Below are positions 11,794 to 41,272 of a stretch of DNA of 64,000 bases, piece after piece; position 1 is the first letter of the stretch, and each line of letters opens with the position of its first letter. Under the pieces are notes generated by a model that searched no databases, was not told the origin of the DNA, and was given only the letters and a program-made list of their open reading frames with translations. Origin of the DNA: Escherichia coli. GTDB taxonomy: Bacteria; Pseudomonadota; Gammaproteobacteria; Enterobacterales; Enterobacteriaceae. The DNA lies in assembly GCF_965641715.1 (NCBI RefSeq), contig NZ_OZ282453.1; one strand, 5' to 3'. Made by a program: the position numbers and the translations under genes.

Positions 11794-13269
11794 TTAAATA
11801 TGATGAATAATCACTTTGTTGCCCCCCTCGCTTTTCGCTTCGCGTAAGGCTTTATCTGCTTCCGTCATGACAAGCGAGATATTACGCGTGTCACCCGTTG
11901 AAAAAACCGTGCCAATACTGATGGTCATTTGTTCAGGAACATCATATCTGTTACTAAAGCCGGTCAGGAGTTCGACATTTTTACGCATACGTTCCGCAAT
12001 GATTTTTGCCTGGGCACTATTGAGTTCGGTAAATAGCAAGCCAAACACCTCACCCTCCAGTCGCGCTAAAATATCATCGGGGCGGATGCTTTGCTGGATA
12101 ATATCGACAATTGAAACCAGCACTTTATCACCCACACGATGTCCCCATTGGGCATTGATGCGTTTGAACTGATTAATATCAACCAGCATGACACAGAAGT
12201 CCTTAACAACAGGTCGCGACAATAATGACTCTACGCTGTTGAAAAAGTAGCGCCGATTGTAAATATTGGTCAGCACATCATGAACTGCCAGTTTGCTGGA
12301 GAGTTGCAGCTCCTGAAAAATGTTATAAATCAGAAAAGACACAACAAACAGTTTACTGGAGACTTCAATCCCGCGACTGATATACCAGATGGTATAATTA
12401 TACTCATCCAGAGTCAGTAGAAGTAAGTTGCAGCATAGCGATGCCAGACATAATAATGCTATTAACGGCCATAGTTCGCTGGCTAATCGTGTACGCATGA
12501 TAATAAAGAACAGTAAAAATGCCCACAGACAAACCAATATTTTTGTATAGTTGATTCCCCAGGTCGCAGTATGGTTGTCCGGACAGTAATCGACGACATA
12601 CAAAGAATAGTCAGCGTTATAACTGCTCAGATTGTGTGCCAGAAGGGGAAAAACTAAAAAAGGAATCAGCGCCAGCAACAGAATGCCAGTTTTTTTCTTA
12701 TTGTTGTCAAGGATGTTGTCTTTTCCATAACAAAAGAGCGCCAGCGAGGTTAAACAAATAAAACTGAGTTGGCGGAAAATATAGAAAATAGAAACATCAT
12801 TCGACTTTGTCTGGATCAGTGTACTGCCGTTAATTGGTTTATGGATAATTACAATGGTTTCAACTAAATAGATAAGGCCACTTAAAAATGCAAGGCTTAA
12901 AATGAGTGTTGGTAAAATTTGTTTGTTAGTGAAATATTTCATTAACATGAAAAGAAAAATGACGGCGTTAAGGAAAAACAAAGCCACAACAACCATCAGG
13001 TAATTCATCTGTGGGATGAGTTTTACATTTGTGTTTTCGTTATATAAGGTAGTAATGCAAAATAAAATTAACGTCAGCAATAAACTGAAAATAAAAAAGC
13101 TTTGAGCTTTTAATTTTTGTGTACCCATAGAAACCATAAAAAGGAGAGCAATGTGAGTGCTGGATTTTATTGATGGCAGAGATATATGGTTTTGACCAGG
13201 ATCAATTTTCGTTAACGATAAAAAATATTTAAAGAATAACCCCATGGAAATACGTGTTGACTGAATCAT
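11794..13269 (-). CDS. cdgI: Membrane protein with degenerate GGDEF domain (c-di-GMP binding, CdgI)
   Basis: 491-aa ORF; multi-TM N-terminal half; C-terminal GGDEF fold whose motif reads EGEVF instead of GGDEF; AT-rich. Confidence 0.85.
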   Translation of the reverse strand: MIQSTRISMGLFFKYFLSLTKIDPGQNHISLPSIKSSTHIALLFMVSMGTQKLKAQSFFIFSLLLTLILFCITTLYNENTNVKLIPQMNYLMVVVALFFLNAVIFLFMLMKYFTNKQILPTLILSLAFLSGLIYLVETIVIIHKPINGSTLIQTKSNDVSIFYIFRQLSFICLTSLALFCYGKDNILDNNKKKTGILLLALIPFLVFPLLAHNLSSYNADYSLYVVDYCPDNHTATWGINYTKILVCLWAFLLFFIIMRTRLASELWPLIALLCLASLCCNLLLLTLDEYNYTIWYISRGIEVSSKLFVVSFLIYNIFQELQLSSKLAVHDVLTNIYNRRYFFNSVESLLSRPVVKDFCVMLVDINQFKRINAQWGHRVGDKVLVSIVDIIQQSIRPDDILARLEGEVFGLLFTELNSAQAKIIAERMRKNVELLTGFSNRYDVPEQMTISIGTVFSTGDTRNISLVMTEADKALREAKSEGGNKVIIHHI

Positions 13270-28801: not shown

Positions 28802-29560
28802 GTGGCGGCAAAAGACAGGATTCAGGCAATTAAGCAAATGGTTGCCAACGATAAAAAGGTGACAGTCTCAAATTTGAGTGGGATTTTTCAGGTAACCGAA
28901 GAAACCATTCGCCGCGATCTTGAGAAGCTGGAAGATGAAGGCTTTTTGACCAGAACTTATGGTGGTGCTGTTTTAAATACAGCGATGTTGACGGAGAATA
29001 TTCATTTTTATAAGCGCGCTTCATCGTTTTATGAAGAGAAGCAGCTTATTGCACGCAAGGCACTACCCTTTATCGACAATAAAACCACCATGGCAGCCGA
29101 TTCCAGTAGTACCGTAATGGAATTGCTCAAATTGTTACAGGACCGTAGTGACCTGACGTTGCTAACCAACTCGGCGGAAGCGATTCATGTTCTGGCTCAG
29201 TCAGAAATTAAAGTCGTTTCAACGGGTGGGGAACTAAACAAAAATACACTTTCACTGCAAGGAAGAATTACTAAAGAGATCATCAGCCGCTATCATGTCG
29301 ATATCATGGTAATGAGTTGTAAAGGTCTTGATATTAACAGCGGCGCGCTGGACTCTAATGAAGCGGAAGCTGAAATCAAAAAGACAATGATCCGTCAGGC
29401 GACAGAAGTTGCGTTATTGGTTGATCACTCTAAGTTTGATCGCAAAGCTTTTGTCCAGTTAGCTGACTTTAGTCATATTAATTACATAATAACTGATAAA
29501 TCACCGGGTGCAGAGTGGATAGCATTTTGCAAAGACAATAATATCCAGCTGGTGTGGTAA
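28802..29560 (+). CDS. ydjF: DeoR-family transcriptional regulator
   Basis: 252-aa ORF with a GTG start; N-terminal HTH and DeoR C-domain. Confidence 0.9.
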   Translation: MAAKDRIQAIKQMVANDKKVTVSNLSGIFQVTEETIRRDLEKLEDEGFLTRTYGGAVLNTAMLTENIHFYKRASSFYEEKQLIARKALPFIDNKTTMAADSSSTVMELLKLLQDRSDLTLLTNSAEAIHVLAQSEIKVVSTGGELNKNTLSLQGRITKEIISRYHVDIMVMSCKGLDINSGALDSNEAEAEIKKTMIRQATEVALLVDHSKFDRKAFVQLADFSHINYIITDKSPGAEWIAFCKDNNIQLVW

Positions 29561-36683: not shown

Positions 36684-38645
36684 ATGCGGTTGTTTATTGC
36701 CGAAAAACCGAGTCTGGCGCGCGCCATTGCTGATGTCCTGCCCAAACCGCACCGTAAAGGCGATGGCTTTATCGAGTGCGGTAATGGTCAGGTGGTGACC
36801 TGGTGTATCGGTCACCTGCTTGAGCAGGCGCAGCCAGACGCCTACGACAGCCGCTATGCGCGCTGGAATCTTGCGGATTTGCCGATTGTCCCGGAAAAGT
36901 GGCAATTACAGCCCCGACCCTCCGTGACCAAACAACTTAACGTCATCAAACGCTTCCTGCATGAAGCCAGCGAAATCGTTCACGCCGGGGACCCGGATCG
37001 TGAAGGGCAATTGCTGGTGGATGAAGTGCTGGACTATCTGCAACTGGCACCGGAAAAGCGCCAGCAGGTGCAGCGTTGCTTGATAAACGACCTGAACCCG
37101 CAGGCGGTTGAGCGGGCGATCGACCGTCTTCGTTCCAACAGTGAGTTTGTGCCATTGTGCGTTTCTGCGCTGGCGCGAGCGCGTGCCGACTGGCTGTACG
37201 GCATCAATATGACCCGTGCGTATACCATTCTCGGTCGCAATGCCGGTTATCAGGGCGTACTTTCCGTGGGACGCGTGCAGACACCCGTGCTCGGGCTGGT
37301 GGTGCGCCGCGATGAAGAGATTGAAAACTTCGTGGCGAAAGACTTCTTTGAAGTCAAAGCGCATATCGTGACACCTGCCGATGAGCGGTTTACCGCTATC
37401 TGGCAACCGAGCGAAGCGTGTGAACCGTACCAGGATGAAGAAGGGCGCTTGTTACATCGTCCACTGGCGGAGCATGTGGTTAACCGCATTAGTGGTCAAC
37501 CGGCTATTGTCACCAGCTATAACGATAAACGGGAATCAGAATCCGCGCCGCTGCCGTTTTCGCTTTCGGCGTTGCAGATTGAAGCGGCAAAACGCTTTGG
37601 TCTGAGCGCGCAGAACGTGCTTGATATCTGCCAGAAGCTGTACGAAACGCACAAGCTAATCACTTATCCGCGTTCCGATTGTCGCTATTTGCCAGAAGAA
37701 CATTTTGCCGGACGCCACGCGGTGATGAATGCCATCAGCGTTCATGCACCAGATCTGTTGCCGCAGCCAGTGGTAGATCCAGATATACGCAACCGCTGTT
37801 GGGATGACAAAAAGGTCGATGCGCACCACGCCATCATCCCGACCGCACGGAGTTCTGCGATCAACCTGACGGAGAACGAAGCGAAGGTCTATAACCTTAT
37901 TGCCCGTCAGTACTTGATGCAGTTCTGCCCGGATGCGGTGTTCCGCAAGTGTGTTATCGAACTGGACATTGCCAAAGGCAAATTTGTCGCTAAAGCGCGT
38001 TTTCTTGCTGAAGCAGGTTGGCGCGCGCTGTTAGGCAGCAAAGAGCGCGATGAAGAAAACGACGGCACGCCACTGCCTGTGGTGGCGAAAGGCGATGAGT
38101 TGCTGTGTGAAAAAGGTGAAGTGGTAGAGCGGCAAACCCAGCCGCCTCGCCATTTTACCGATGCAACACTGCTTTCGGCGATGACCGGGATCGCGCGCTT
38201 TGTGCAGGACAAAGATCTGAAAAAGATCCTTCGTGCGACCGATGGCCTGGGGACAGAAGCAACGCGTGCCGGGATTATTGAACTGTTGTTCAAGCGTGGT
38301 TTCCTGACCAAAAAAGGGCGCTATATCCACTCTACCGACGCCGGAAAAGCGCTATTCCATTCGCTGCCGGAGATGGCTACGCGACCGGACATGACCGCGC
38401 ACTGGGAATCAGTGCTGACGCAAATCAGCGAAAAGCAGTGTCGCTATCAGGACTTTATGCAGCCGCTGGTGGGGACGCTATATCAGCTTATTGATCAAGC
38501 CAAACGTACTCCGGTGCGGCAGTTTCGCGGCATTGTGGCTCCGGGCAGTGGTGGCAGTGCTGATAAGAAAAAGGCTGCACCGCGTAAACGTAGTGCGAAA
38601 AAAAGTCCGCCAGCAGATGAAGCCGGAAGCGGGGCGATAGCGTAA
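36684..38645 (+). CDS. topB: DNA topoisomerase III
   Basis: ORF 36627-38645 trimmed to the ATG at 36684 (653 aa, [19 protein letters not shown]...); starts 5 bp after the selD stop. Confidence 0.9.
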
Positions 38646-38684
38646 GCGAGCGAATCTTTCGTGCTATTCGAGTCATATTCTGAA

Positions 38685-38723
38685 ATATCCAGCGGATCAA
38701 GAAAATTCGTTGGATATTTTTTT
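38685..38723 (+). terminator. Candidate rho-independent terminator after topB
   Basis: Imperfect hairpin atatccagcg...cgttggatat followed by a 7-T run. Confidence 0.45.
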
Positions 38724-38771
38724 GCATGGATAAAATTATCGCCTCTAAAGTATGTAATAACAGGGAATGTG

Positions 38772-39812
38772 ATGAAAAAAGTTTTATTACAAAACCATCC
38801 TGGGAGCGAGAAGTATTCTTTTAATGGCTGGGAAATATTTAATAGTAATTTTGAACGGATGATTAAAGAAAATAAGGCCATGCTGCTTTGTAAGTGGGGA
38901 GGTTATTTAACATGTGTTGTCGCTGTAATGTTTGTATTCGCAGCGATAACATCCAACGGTTTGAATGAAAGAGGCCTGATTACTGCGGGATGCTCTTTTC
39001 TTTATCTATTAATTATGATGGGGCTTATTGTTCGGGCCGGTTTTAAAGCAAAAAAAGAACAACTGCATTATTATCAGGCTAAAGGTATTGAGCCGCTCAG
39101 TATCGAGAAGTTACAGGCGCTACAATTGATCGCACCTTATCGATTCTATCATAAGCAATGGTCTGAAACGCTGGAGTTCTGGCCGCGAAAGCCTGAACCT
39201 GGCAAAGATACCTTCCAATATCATGTGCTTCCTTTTGACTCGATCAATATCATTAGTAAAAGACGCGAGTCTTTAGAGGATCAATGGGGTATCGAAGATA
39301 GCGAAAGTTATTGTGCCTTAATGGAGCATTTTCTTTCTGGCGACCATGGAGCCAATACCTTTAAAGCAAACATGGAGGAAGCCCCAGAGCAGGTTATCGC
39401 CTTGTTGAATAAATTTGCTGTTTTTCCCTCAGATTATATCTCTGATTGCGCTAATAATCGCTCCGGTAAATCCTCGGCGAAGCTAATATGGGCGGCGGAA
39501 TTATCATGGATGATCTCGATATCAAGCACAGCTTTTCAAAACGGGACAATTGAAGAAGAACTGGCCTGGCATTATATAATGCTTGCTTCTCGAAAGGCGC
39601 ACGAGTTGTTCGAAAGCGAAGAAGATGATCAAAAAAATAGTCTAATGGGATTTCTTTACTGGCATATCTGCTGCTATCGCAGAAAGTTAACGGATGCTGA
39701 ACTTGAAGCGTGTTATCGTTACGACAAGCAGTTTTGGGAGCACTACAGTAAGAAATGCCGTTGGCCCATAAGAAATGTTCCCTGGGGAGCATCATCCGTT
39801 AAATACTCATAA
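38772..39812 (+). CDS. ynjI: DUF1266 inner-membrane protein
   Basis: ORF 38661-39812 trimmed to the ATG at 38772 (346 aa, MKKVLLQNHPG...); AT-rich. Confidence 0.8.
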   Translation: MKKVLLQNHPGSEKYSFNGWEIFNSNFERMIKENKAMLLCKWGGYLTCVVAVMFVFAAITSNGLNERGLITAGCSFLYLLIMMGLIVRAGFKAKKEQLHYYQAKGIEPLSIEKLQALQLIAPYRFYHKQWSETLEFWPRKPEPGKDTFQYHVLPFDSINIISKRRESLEDQWGIEDSESYCALMEHFLSGDHGANTFKANMEEAPEQVIALLNKFAVFPSDYISDCANNRSGKSSAKLIWAAELSWMISISSTAFQNGTIEEELAWHYIMLASRKAHELFESEEDDQKNSLMGFLYWHICCYRRKLTDAELEACYRYDKQFWEHYSKKCRWPIRNVPWGASSVKYS

Positions 39813-39826
39813 ACGCCTGAAATTTT

Positions 39827-39920
39827 GCCGGGGGCGCTGCGCTTGCCCGGCCTACATTAGAGCGTAACTGCAATGAATTGTGCCCATTTGTAGGCCTGAT
39901 AAGCGTAGCGCCATCAGGCA
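39827..39920. repeat. REP element pair between ynjI and gdhA
   Basis: gcccggcctaca and tgtaggcctgataagcgtagcgccatcaggca, typical REP units in convergent intergenic DNA. Confidence 0.6.
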
Positions 39921-39928
39921 TTTACAAC

Positions 39929-41272
39929 TTAAATCACACCCTGCGCCAGCATCGCATCGGCAACCTTCACAAAACCGGCAATGTTCGCGCCCTGCACGTA
40001 GTTGGTTTGCTCACCTTCACCACCATGCTCAACACAGGCATGGTGGATATCCAGCATGATGTGATGCAAACGTGCGTCAACTTTCTCGGCTTTCCAGCCC
40101 AGGCGCGCAGCGTTTTGCGCCATTTCAAGGCCTGACGTTGCTACACCGCCAGCATTAGCCGCTTTACCCGGTGCAAACAGTACGCCTGCCTGCTGGAACA
40201 GTTCAGTCGCTTCGATGGTGGTTGGCATATTTGCCCCTTCAGCGACGGCTTTAACGCCATTGGCGATAAGCTGATGCGCGGCGTCAACATCCAGTTCATT
40301 CTGGGTGGCGCAAGGCAGGGCGATATCAACCGGTACAGACCACGGCTGTTGGCCTTCGAGATAGACCAGACCAAATTCTTTGGCGTAATCTGCCACTCGA
40401 CCATCGCGGCTGGCTTTGATTTCGATAAGACGTGCCAGTTTCTCTTTCGTGAATCCGCTTTCATCAACTACAGTGCCGCTGGAGTCTGACGCAGTGATCA
40501 CACGAGCACCAAATTCCATCGCTTTTTCGATAGCGTACTGGGCGACGTTGCCGGAGCCAGAAACGGAAACGCGCATTCCTTCAAAACCCATACCGTGGCG
40601 TTTTAGCATTGCTTCTGTGAAATAAACCAGACCGTAGCCGGTAGCTTCCGGGCGAATAAGACTGCCGCCAAATGAAAGGCCCTTACCGGTGAAGACGCAG
40701 GCGGTATTGTTGGAGAGCTTTTTCATCATCCCCGCCATAAAGCCGACTTCACGACCACCAACCCCGATATCACCTGCCGGAACGTCGGTATCCGCGCCCA
40801 GGTGGCGATACAGTTCAGTCATCAGCGCCTGGCAAAAACGCATCACTTCACCTTCGCTTTTTCCTTTCGGATCGAAATCGCTGCCGCCTTTACCACCGCC
40901 CATCGGCAGAGTAGTCAGGGCATTTTTGAAGGTTTGTTCGAAGCCGAGGAATTTGAGAATGGAGAGGTTAACTGACGGATGGAAGCGCATACCGCCTTTG
41001 TACGGGCCGATGGCAGAGCTGAACTGCACACGCCATGCACGGTTGACCTGTACCTGATTGCGATCATCAACCCATACCACGCGAAACTGGATCACGCGCT
41101 CCGGTTCAACCAGACGCTCCAGTAATGACATCTGGCGATATTTTGGATTTTGTTCAAGAAAAGGCCAGAGTGTGGTCATTACTTCACGAACGGCTTGCGC
41201 GAACTCGGTTTGATTCGGGTCGCGCTTTTGGACATGGTTGAGGAATGACTCCAGAGAATATGTCTGATCCAT
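39929..41272 (-). CDS. gdhA: NADP-specific glutamate dehydrogenase
   Basis: 447-aa ORF, MDQTYSLESFLNHVQKRDP... Confidence 0.95.
   Translation of the reverse strand: MDQTYSLESFLNHVQKRDPNQTEFAQAVREVMTTLWPFLEQNPKYRQMSLLERLVEPERVIQFRVVWVDDRNQVQVNRAWRVQFSSAIGPYKGGMRFHPSVNLSILKFLGFEQTFKNALTTLPMGGGKGGSDFDPKGKSEGEVMRFCQALMTELYRHLGADTDVPAGDIGVGGREVGFMAGMMKKLSNNTACVFTGKGLSFGGSLIRPEATGYGLVYFTEAMLKRHGMGFEGMRVSVSGSGNVAQYAIEKAMEFGARVITASDSSGTVVDESGFTKEKLARLIEIKASRDGRVADYAKEFGLVYLEGQQPWSVPVDIALPCATQNELDVDAAHQLIANGVKAVAEGANMPTTIEATELFQQAGVLFAPGKAANAGGVATSGLEMAQNAARLGWKAEKVDARLHHIMLDIHHACVEHGGEGEQTNYVQGANIAGFVKVADAMLAQGVI

Follow-up and report, generated by a model that had tools for sequence, protein, structure and literature searches.

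ynjI, a foreign-looking accessory gene in a polymorphic slot between topB and gdhA of Escherichia coli

The ynjI locus and its upstream region

The window analysed here, a 64,000-nucleotide stretch of Escherichia coli DNA, carries ynjI between two convergent core genes, topB, which ends at 38645, and gdhA, which lies on the minus strand and ends at 39929. The ynjI coding sequence (38772..39812, + strand, 346 aa) matches the RefSeq annotation, and the gene itself is already known, a catalogued y-gene whose domain has a name and whose membrane location and regulator have been published. The features recognized at the locus are given below, where the empty haplotype is the E. coli arrangement of topB and gdhA without ynjI.

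38477..38645, + strand: 3' end of topB, encoding a Lys-rich C-terminal tail; left edge of the variable segment, with mismatches to the empty haplotype dense from 38477
38646..38771, + strand: non-coding topB-ynjI spacer, the ynjI promoter and regulatory region, with indels between alleles and published fusions
38676..38691, + strand: putative BglJ-RcsB box TATTCTGA within the block ATTCTGAAATATCCA, fitting the published core wwTTCykA
38683..38719, + strand: inverted repeat AAATATCCAGCGGAT / ATTCGTTGGATATTT, candidate operator for a dimeric regulator, kept in every allele
38731..38736, + strand: putative -10 hexamer TAAAAT, conserved in six of seven loci (AAAAAT in the seventh)
38892..39041, + strand: predicted transmembrane hairpin with a short periplasmic loop (TM1 aa 41-64, TM2 aa 68-90), from hydropathy, K/R residues and the AF2 model
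38900..39823, + strand: segment replaced in a divergent ynjI allele of E. coli (P0005 type); both edges, 38900 and 39823, are sharp
39270..39785, + strand: all-alpha DUF1266 (PF06889) domain, aa 167-338, predicted cytoplasmic, from the Pfam match and AF2 (pLDDT 90-98)
39827..39856, no strand assigned: REP element 1 (GCCGGGGGCGCTGCGCTTGCCCGGCCTACA), an imperfect palindrome with dispersed copies
39890..39919, no strand assigned: REP element 2 (GTAGGCCTGATAAGCGTAGCGCCATCAGGC), inverted relative to REP 1 in a BIME-like pair, from palindrome, dispersed copies and fold
39929..39949, - strand: last seven codons of gdhA; right edge of the variable segment, with mismatches to the empty haplotype clustered at 39938-39949 and near-identity beyond

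The original prediction had the feature begin at 38661. The longest open reading frame (38661-39812, + strand, 383 aa) does run from a GTG at that position, but we rejected this codon as the start since alleles differ by frame-breaking indels in the 111 nt between it and ATG 38772, and the N-terminus shared by the family starts only at that ATG. The true start is evidently ATG 38772, as also indicated by the N-terminal MKK..LLQNHPG motif common to the whole YnjI family and by an AGGGA ribosome-binding site 5 nt upstream.

The atypical, AT-rich composition first noted for the gene was borne out, with a GC content of 41% (0.411; GC3 0.406) against 53-55% (0.53-0.55; GC3 0.54-0.60) in topB, selD, gdhA and ydjA. 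Among the 50 long open reading frames of the window, ynjI has the lowest GC3 and the second-lowest GC, approximately 2.1-2.3 standard deviations below the mean. All syntenic ynjI alleles examined are likewise AT-rich (41-43% GC versus 52-55% in their flanks), and at every syntenic locus the gene lies clearly under the host backbone, as expected of a xenogeneic gene. This low GC is maintained rather than merely un-ameliorated, because approximately 41% GC persists where synonymous sites are saturated.

In published work, ynjI was silent under laboratory conditions and repressed by H-NS/StpA, its expression being "moderately increased" in a delta-hns stpA strain; it was strongly increased by constitutive BglJ, and promoter-lacZ fusions of the topB-ynjI spacer were activated by BglJ-RcsB (PMC3950696). 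The exact placement of the BglJ-RcsB box, the -10 hexamer and the transcription start is our own assignment and not that of the paper's figure; the position of TAAAAT agrees with the published distance to the box (PMC3950696), and transcription would start near 38743. The block ATTCTGAAATATCCA is invariant in all seven syntenic ynjI loci, including an allele with 58% amino acid identity, and the overlapping inverted repeat shows one compensatory change, C-G to T-A, in the allele of a gut metagenome-assembled genome (MAG). A sigma-70 consensus scan upstream of ynjI gave no match and left TAAAAT unscored, as expected because the promoter should depend on an activator. While ynjI was already a published member of the BglJ-RcsB regulon (with bgl, leuO, chiA, yidL, ynbA and others), what is added here is an assigned box block that is invariant in seven syntenic loci, other genera included.

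Downstream, the expected REP cluster proved to consist of two elements with the sequence hallmarks of REP/BIME elements: palindromes of approximately 30 nt that end in GGCCTAC / GTAGGCC, an inverted arrangement, dispersed copies and a position between convergent stop codons. The 103-bp REP segment occurs at a median of 16 places per E. coli genome (range 3-36, at blastn sensitivity) and, folded as RNA, reaches -49.9 kcal/mol (z = -3.8); inspection by eye of the 33-nt spacer between the REPs yielded no convincing IHF consensus. REP-like palindromes are present as well at sites empty of ynjI in E. coli, E. albertii, Citrobacter and Enterobacter, and because of this the REPs, which the original prediction had counted into the signature of an old insertion, fall outside it; they are neither an insertion scar nor specific to ynjI. 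The pair is 99% identical between two ynjI alleles, while the gene differs by 33%.

The YnjI protein

A 346-aa DUF1266 membrane protein had been predicted between topB and gdhA, and this is what we found. The Pfam DUF1266 profile (PF06889) matches aa 167-338 with 85.8 bits (cut-off 27, E=5.2e-24) over its full length (positions 1-175 of 175), and the NCBIfam YnjI equivalog PRK11380 matches aa 1-346 with 660.5 bits (cut-off 386). DUF1266 was the only domain in the Pfam scan, which returned neither an Hsp70 nor a J-domain, and a DUF1266 profile search for domain fusions returned almost exclusively single-domain proteins. The hydrophobic stretches by hydropathy (aa 41-64 and 68-90), the flanking K/R residues and the AF2 helices (36-60 and 66-104; overall pLDDT 91) all fit a predicted N-in/C-in two-helix hairpin, so that the LLQNHPG motif and the DUF1266 domain are both predicted to face the cytoplasm. 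YnjI is listed as an inner membrane protein in Table 1 of PMC3950696, which cites earlier topology work. The "long K/E-rich region" of the original prediction was overstated: K and E make up 16% of the protein overall, with a single acidic patch at aa 281-288.

YnjI has the complete architecture of a subfamily of 82 cluster representatives, namely an N-terminal LLQNHPG motif, two transmembrane helices, EQxxYY after TM2, a WSETLE..P linker and DUF1266. In an alignment of 48 full-length relatives (18-80% identity), Q7, N8, Q97, Y100, Y101, W130, E135 and P138 are invariant or nearly so, and the full-length architecture and its motifs are kept down to 25% identity in distant phyla. The homologues are distributed patchily across Gammaproteobacteria and Flavobacteriia. 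The DUF1266 fold is without a relative among solved structures: Foldseek against PDB gave only E values above 1 and a sequence profile search against PDB only coiled-coil noise; against BFVD, Foldseek E values were above 0.4.

The topB-gdhA slot across genomes

Without ynjI, the gap between topB and gdhA measures 29 bp in Salmonella, 88 bp in Citrobacter, 91 bp in Enterobacter and 179 bp in E. albertii. At the level of gene order, these gaps show topB-gdhA adjacency to be the ancestral enterobacterial arrangement. Outside E. coli, syntenic ynjI was found in E. fergusonii, Escherichia sp. MOD1-EC7003, Pseudocitrobacter vendiensis and a gut MAG of an enterobacterium.

Among the 5,426 complete E. 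coli genomes surveyed, the K-12-type ynjI occupies the slot in 3,505 (~65%), whereas 1,514 (~28%), the type strain included, have it empty. An HscC-like Hsp70 gene paired with a J-domain/Sel1 gene is present in 369 (~7%), and a divergent ynjI allele (68% identical) in approximately 71 (~1%). The slot is a four-state polymorphic hotspot in E. coli in which the insertion is unfixed; hundreds to thousands of complete genomes stand behind three of the states and approximately 70 behind the fourth. In some strains ynjI is interrupted by IS elements, and gene calls lacking the N-terminus are common among database proteins (752 sequences in cluster P0004). The upstream block of ynjI is absent from the topB-Hsp70 spacer, and the two cargo types share no promoter. 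Hotspots collect unrelated cargo, and the sharing of this slot with an Hsp70 pair may be coincidence.

The topB tail differs from one slot state to the next. Within the final 150 nt of topB, the window is 69% identical to the empty E. coli haplotype and the latter is 83% identical to E. albertii; the tail in loci with the Hsp70 pair differs again. The divergent ynjI allele shows 310 mismatches over 38881-39815, while the adjoining 2.2 kb on the left has 47 and the 1.5 kb on the right 20; dS is 3.2 within the replaced segment and 0.04-0.10 in its flanks.

A classical genomic island or integrative element was rejected for ynjI. The open reading frames between topB and gdhA in the window include no integrase, transposase or IS; no tRNA or other Rfam match lies in or around ynjI at E<=1, and neither an att-like site nor flanking direct or inverted repeats surround it. 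No plasmid or phage copies were found, the sole "plasmid" match being a 4.8-Mb chromosome and the sole "phage" match a 1.9-kb fragment. The slot thus resembles other hotspots and islets flanked by core genes in its variable, alternative cargo and in the mosaic, recombined ends of the adjoining genes, but is unlike them in having no integrase, tRNA, att-like direct repeat or IS boundary and in holding only one or two genes. Unlike typical islet cargo, ynjI has also co-diverged with the backbone, to a depth comparable to the E. coli-Salmonella divergence.

The insertion appears to be very old, because the dS of ynjI against Pseudocitrobacter (1.18) equals that of its flanks (1.24 for topB, 1.31 for gdhA). 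Between alleles separated by a dS of 0.3 to more than 3, dN/dS is 0.05-0.16; ynjI is therefore under purifying selection and, because of this, encodes a functional protein. One ancient gain followed by many losses, an ancestral gene with many losses, spread by recombination in the flanks and repeated lateral replacement cannot be separated as origins, because dS is near saturation. The comparative genomics of the interval, run as the original prediction had proposed, speaks for an old insertion within a conserved backbone on the grounds of outgroup adjacency, patchy presence and AT-richness; the gene is neither uniformly present nor host-typical in composition.

The same data can be read with ynjI as ancestral at the slot: Salmonella, Citrobacter, Enterobacter, E. 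albertii and part of E. coli would each have lost it separately, and its low GC would reflect constraints of its own. Its shared position in Escherichia, Pseudocitrobacter and the gut enterobacterium, a dS equal to the flanks, a conserved promoter block and a low GC that must be maintained to persist despite saturated dS would all fit. Such a history requires many independent clean losses, however, for a gene that gave just three matches (one on a contaminant contig) among approximately 100,000 species representatives. The ynjI tree is moreover incongruent with the core: the gut MAG and Pseudocitrobacter are 93% identical in core proteins versus 58% in YnjI, and the E. coli alleles are 68% identical. 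Distant homologues whose GC is typical of their hosts occur in hosts of lower GC, in keeping with a foreign source, and we regard ancestry at the slot as unlikely.

Possible roles of YnjI

We consider it reasonably probable overall that ynjI is a foreign-looking accessory gene in a recombination hotspot bounded by two convergent core genes, topB and gdhA. The slot would change from one state to another through homologous recombination in the core genes on either side, and the product would be a two-helix hairpin protein of the inner membrane with its N-terminal motif and DUF1266 domain on the cytoplasmic side. In published work the gene is repressed by H-NS/StpA and the BglJ-RcsB heteromer switches it on (PMC3950696).

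As a sub-proposal, held tentatively and with low confidence, YnjI may be a membrane-tethered, protein-binding adaptor that works at the cytoplasmic face of the inner membrane with, or in parallel to, HscC-type Hsp70/J-protein chaperones. This is suggested because the only other DUF1266 genes of K-12, ybeR and ybeU, overlap the starts of djlB and djlC, which encode tail-anchored J-proteins, next to hscC (gene order ybeQ-ybeR-djlB-ybeT-ybeU-djlC-hscC, with 4-nt overlaps), and because the slot can hold instead an HscC-like Hsp70 together with a DjlC-like J-domain/Sel1 protein. Across its whole length the cassette Hsp70 shares 43% identity with HscC (E=4e-160), and its partner has a DjlC-like J-domain followed by seven Sel1 repeats. 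HscC, DjlB and DjlC were reportedly characterised in 2002, and sensitivity to Cd2+ or UV is reported for hscC and djlB djlC mutants. The three proteins are proposed to work at the plasma membrane, on clients not yet known (PMC8215388), and YnjI is likewise predicted or proposed to lie at the cytoplasmic inner-membrane face. Both the HscC-DjlB/DjlC system and ynjI are sporadic in distribution, which is attributed to horizontal transfer.

YbeR and YbeU, all-helical like YnjI, share PF06889 with it across the whole profile. They are 235-aa soluble proteins whose genes overlap djlB and djlC, whereas ynjI is monocistronic and its product has an additional N-terminal module of 165 residues (LLQNHPG, the two-TM hairpin and the WSETLE linker). 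Pairwise BLASTP of YnjI against YbeR and YbeU gave nothing significant (E=0.06-0.2), and they are related at the level of the Pfam profile only. A DUF1266 protein of E. coli strain 042 presumably belongs to the ybe region, to judge from its locus number. That protein is strongly repressed by H-NS (PMC7582179).

The chaperone link of YnjI would be guilt by association only. Unlike the components of the HscC-DjlB/DjlC system, YnjI contains no Hsp70 domain and no J-domain, and it could be connected to such a system solely via its remote paralogues YbeR/YbeU and the other cargo that the slot can hold. No Hsp70 or J gene lies beside a ynjI-type gene in the six kinds of context examined (the topB-gdhA slot of Escherichia, Pseudocitrobacter and the gut MAG, Hafnia, Photorhabdus, Ignatzschineria and one further contig), and no conserved operon partner was seen in Hafnia, where the gene lies between yniA and yniB, in Photorhabdus, in Ignatzschineria or on the further contig. 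Homology of the YnjI family to the cassette J/Sel1 protein was rejected (hhalign probability 0.07%).

Alternatively, ynjI might be a stand-alone conflict or defence gene, for instance a membrane-acting abortive-infection or exclusion factor, and the slot a small defence hotspot with alternative immunity modules. Presence/absence polymorphism and deeply divergent alleles at one core-flanked slot, an AT-rich and H-NS-repressed gene and the patchy occurrence of YnjI over Gammaproteobacteria and Flavobacteriia would fit such a role; the Ignatzschineria homologue is part of a variable island that also holds a gene for a YobI-type ATPase and several genes without a Pfam match, and the cassette Hsp70 gives a faint match to the PADLOC candidate PDC-M61B (E=3.5e-4). 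YnjI itself, however, matches no family of PADLOC-DB 2.0 at E<=1 and no PHROG, and its gene was not found on phages or plasmids. Strong purifying selection is not the signature of an arms race, ynjI has co-diverged with the backbone over a dS of approximately 1.2, and the retention of the regulatory box across all alleles points to a host-integrated role; we consider a defence function quite improbable. Still less likely, in our judgement, is that DUF1266 is an enzyme, a helical, toroid-like hydrolase or transferase whose substrate, at the cytoplasmic face, would be a lipid-linked or envelope precursor; it would draw on the conserved acidic residues E135 and E262 and on many conserved Trp and Tyr residues. 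That ynjI is a decaying remnant without function, preserved by silencing alone, is already disfavoured and highly improbable: the silence of the gene in laboratory conditions, its absence at no obvious cost from 28% of strains, the IS-hit copies and the frequent truncated calls are outweighed by the low dN/dS across alleles, by an architecture and motifs kept to 25% identity in distant phyla, by the conserved promoter and ribosome-binding site and by a confident AF2 model.

With ynjI as an accessory gene in a recombination hotspot, the slot offers a ready-made natural system in which a cargo of one or two genes appears to be swapped by flanking recombination without mobile-element machinery, and in which the assigned BglJ-RcsB box has remained unchanged over divergences where synonymous sites are saturated. 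Going further, and doubtfully, DUF1266 could be the module for client recognition or regulation that has been missing from HscC-type membrane Hsp70 systems, with YnjI as a self-anchored version. If this were true, one pathway would have two interchangeable modules, TM-DUF1266 and an HscC-like Hsp70 with J/Sel1, between which the topB-gdhA slot alternates; K-12 would encode that pathway in full at ybeQ-hscC, and the cellular role of HscC, DjlB and DjlC would become testable through the genetics of ynjI, ybeR and ybeU. The co-occurrence of DUF1266, J-domain, Sel1 and HscC-like Hsp70 genes at the ybe cluster and at the topB-gdhA slot gives a testable lead for two sets of orphan proteins.

The ynjI gene and its product

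The window is E. coli chromosome with the gene order ydjA-selD-topB-ynjI-gdhA(-)-ynjH-nudG(-)-ynjF-ynjE(-). The observation behind the original prediction was borne out: an AT-rich gene encoding two predicted membrane helices and a DUF1266 domain (Pfam PF06889) lies between topB and gdhA, with REP elements downstream. The GTG at 38661, which opens the longest ORF (383 aa), was rejected as the start in favor of the ATG at 38772, because a ribosome-binding site (AGGGA) lies 5 nt 5' of this ATG, the N-terminal motif MKK..LLQNHPG is kept across the whole YnjI family, and indels between alleles break the reading frame in the 111 nt upstream.

38772-39812 (+): ynjI, ATG start, 346 aa, as in RefSeq

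The DUF1266 match spans the whole profile (aa 167-338, 85.8 bits versus 27), and the protein also matches the NCBIfam YnjI equivalog. From two hydrophobic helices (aa 41-64 and aa 68-90) with Lys/Arg on their N-terminal and C-terminal sides, we predict an N-in/C-in membrane hairpin. The long K/E-rich region ascribed to the protein was overstated (K+E make up 16% of residues). Its atypical composition was confirmed by a GC of 0.411 and a GC3 of 0.406, below all neighbours compared (0.53-0.55 and 0.54-0.60, respectively), the GC3 being the lowest among 50 long ORFs of the window. Two further clearly AT-rich ORFs, 11794-13269 (-; GC 0.386, 491 aa) and 28838-29560 (+; GC 0.418, 240 aa), presumably yeaI and ydjF by position on the K-12 map, may be further foreign-looking or H-NS-bound genes.

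The YnjI-type family is a small one, forming 82 clusters (50% identity) in a set of 1.8 billion representatives, and its distribution across Escherichia, Hafnia, Photorhabdus, Ignatzschineria and the flavobacteria Sinomicrobium and Aquimarina is patchy. Every member has the same architecture, with near-invariant Q7, N8, Q97, Y100, Y101, W130, E135, P138, W172, G190, W240, E262, W266, G293, W297 and W338. The genes are monocistronic, and no conserved neighbour was found in the contexts examined. In the protein database, 264-aa N-terminally truncated gene calls starting inside the second helix are frequent (cluster P0004, 752 member sequences). In a few strains ynjI is interrupted, by IS4-like ISVsa5 or by IS110-like ISEc20 at about codon 41, examples being H1 (NZ_CP070906.1) and the O145:H28 strain RM13514 (L003:2418-4909).

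Variable content of the topB-gdhA slot

Counted against 5,426 complete E. coli genomes, the slot was found in four states, which add up to roughly the whole collection.

States of the topB-gdhA slot in E. coli
K-12-type ynjI: 3,505 genomes
Empty, 76-bp spacer with one REP, as in type strain ATCC 11775: 1,514 genomes
Two-gene cassette, Hsp70-family (566 aa) and J-domain/7x Sel1 (647 aa): 369 genomes
Second ynjI allele, 68% aa identity: about 71 genomes

The cassette (L027:305-3945 in E. coli RM9513; L028:4599-6994 in ECE170) takes the place of window 38646-39928. It is AT-rich, and terminator-like hairpins of its own flank it on either side. Its first gene encodes an HscC-like Hsp70, 43% identical to K-12 HscC over the full length; the second, overlapping the first by 4 nt, encodes a DjlC-like J-domain, with RPE replacing HPD/HPE, followed by seven Sel1 repeats.

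The variable segment begins in the last ~170 nt of topB, encoding a Lys-rich tail that has its own version in each state, and ends within the last 7 codons of gdhA. Three such tails (38477-38645) co-segregate with the ynjI, empty and Hsp70 states, and outside the tail topoisomerase III (TopB) is 97-99% identical between them. The tail of the empty haplotype is closer to E. albertii (83%) than to the ynjI-bearing haplotype (69%); the presence/absence polymorphism is therefore old or imported. No integrase, tRNA, IS boundary or flanking repeat was found at the locus, nor any genuine ynjI copy in plasmid and phage collections; we infer that the states would be swapped by homologous recombination in the flanking core genes. 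A 1.9-kb "phage" record with ynjI sequence (OR844794.1) and NZ_OL790696.1, an E. coli chromosome of 4.8 Mb that PLSDB lists as a plasmid, are database artefacts.

An E. fergusonii strain with ynjI in the slot (L020, GCA_020002305.1, 1061-5650) is a mosaic: topB and ynjI are E. coli-like, with dS of 0.17 and 0.09, whereas gdhA has dS 1.22, and across gdhA, ynjH and nudG values run from 1.2 to saturation. This suggests that the strain recently acquired either topB-ynjI from E. coli or the opposite side from another source. A comparable patchwork exists within gdhA of Escherichia sp. MOD1-EC7003 (L015).

Age and origin of ynjI

In all outgroup regions fetched, which were retrieved via YnjH proteins, topB and gdhA are convergent and adjacent without ynjI, the spacer measuring 29 bp in Salmonella, 88 bp in Citrobacter, 91 bp in Enterobacter and 179 bp in E. 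albertii. A pattern scan of ~100,000 species representatives returned close relatives in only three records, among them Escherichia sp. MOD1-EC7003 (91% aa) and Pseudocitrobacter vendiensis (81% aa), both in the same slot. The third, a 926-bp contig in the Bacillus coahuilensis m4-4 assembly (NZ_ABFU01000109.1, L017), is contamination, given its 98% protein identity to E. coli ynjI. The slot also holds ynjI in a Hadza gut MAG, whose core proteins are 98.8% identical to P. vendiensis, and in a gut enterobacterium with a YnjI only 58% identical.

Between E. coli and P. vendiensis, ynjI (dS 1.18) is as diverged as topB (1.24) and gdhA (1.31), so the K-12-type lineage co-diverged with its flanks, about as deeply as E. 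coli and Salmonella are separated (dS 1.0-1.4). In the minor E. coli allele, dS is 3.2 in the gene versus 0.04-0.10 in the flanks. Its divergence starts and stops abruptly, at 38900 (codon 43) and 39823, and the REP pair immediately past it is 99% identical between the two alleles, a pattern that speaks for import as a cassette and against rapid evolution in place. Judged by a dN/dS of 0.05-0.16 in deep comparisons, YnjI is functional and constrained. Syntenic alleles are all 41-43% GC with flanks at 52-55%, and distant homologues in lower-GC hosts are host-typical (Hafnia, 46.8% versus 48.5%; another contig, 35.9% versus 38.1%); the low GC has thus been maintained and is consistent with descent from a lower-GC lineage.

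Elsewhere, the Hafnia alvei gene (L011:4891-7721, 31% identity) sits between yniA and yniB, a further case of one gene inserted into a conserved gene pair, here with host-typical GC. In Ignatzschineria rhizosphaerae (L030:2318-11130), a 34%-identical gene lies within a block of genes without Pfam matches, adjoining a YobI-type ATPase of 1,145 aa and a protein that weakly matches Sel1, in what looks like a variable or conflict island.

Downstream of ynjI stand two REP-type palindromes:

39827-39856: REP-type palindrome 1
39890-39919: REP-type palindrome 2, inverted relative to the first

The pair folds as a stable hairpin (z=-3.8) and is part of a repeat scattered through E. coli genomes, with a median of 16 matches in each. 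REPs also occur in empty topB-gdhA sites of several genera, which makes them ordinary occupants of convergent intergenic space, not an insertion scar. Of the proposed signature of an old insertion into a conserved backbone, the insertion is supported by comparative genomics and is ancient, but it is not fixed and occupies a four-state hotspot, and the REPs, present as described, have no part in it. A genomic SELEX study lists a peak of RpoS-holoenzyme binding, of intensity 79.5, in the spacer between the convergent gdhA and ynjI (PMC5493296), that is, window 39813-39928, the REP region; no transcript from this spacer is known.

Regulation and a possible link to HscC

The BglJ-RcsB heteromer activates a promoter in the topB-ynjI spacer, and this activation was abolished when the predicted box was mutated; ynjI mRNA went up moderately in a mutant lacking hns and stpA, and strongly when BglJ was constitutive (Salscheider et al., PMC3950696). 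From the sequence, we infer where the box and the -10 lie in the window, with the box ~63-66 bp upstream of the start implied by the -10; the conserved inverted repeat is listed with them:

38676-38683: candidate BglJ-RcsB box TATTCTGA, matching the published core wwTTCykA
38683-38697 / 38705-38719: inverted repeat AAATATCCAGCGGAT / ATTCGTTGGATATTT
38731-38736: candidate -10, TAAAAT

The block ATTCTGAAATATCCA is unchanged in all seven syntenic loci, the 58%-identity allele included. Overlapping this block, the inverted repeat is likewise kept in 7/7; in the most divergent locus, one C-G pair is replaced by T-A in a compensatory change. The repeat overlaps the expected -35 region and adjoins the box, and is a candidate operator of a dimeric regulator.

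The one functional lead comes from gene context. The other two DUF1266 genes of K-12, ybeR and ybeU, lie in the cluster ybeQ(Sel1)-ybeR-djlB-ybeT(Sel1)-ybeU-djlC-hscC and overlap by 4 nt the starts of djlB and djlC, which encode tail-anchored J-proteins of the specialised Hsp70 HscC. HscC, DjlB and DjlC are thought to act at the plasma membrane on unknown clients (PMC8215388). With HscC-like and DjlC-like/Sel1 proteins as alternative cargo of the slot, both non-empty cargo types come from one four-family toolkit; the reading we therefore favour, though with low confidence, is that YnjI might be a membrane-tethered protein-binding adaptor connected to HscC-type chaperoning. Against it, YnjI is related to YbeR/YbeU at profile level only, lacks J and Hsp70 domains, and has no homology to the J/Sel1 protein; unlike ybeR and ybeU, YnjI-type genes stand alone, never next to Hsp70/J genes in the contexts examined. 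Hotspots also gather unrelated cargo by chance.

Already known are the annotation of ynjI (b1762), its domain family, membrane location and BglJ-RcsB/H-NS control, and the gene is of a familiar kind, a silenced accessory gene of foreign appearance occupying a variable slot between core genes. Absent from the papers searched, and new to us, are the Hsp70/J-Sel1 pair as alternative cargo, the depth of the ynjI alleles across species boundaries, the unchanged regulatory block together with its palindrome, and DUF1266/YnjI being without any solved fold relative. Together, these offer a modest lead that can be tested for both DUF1266 and HscC.
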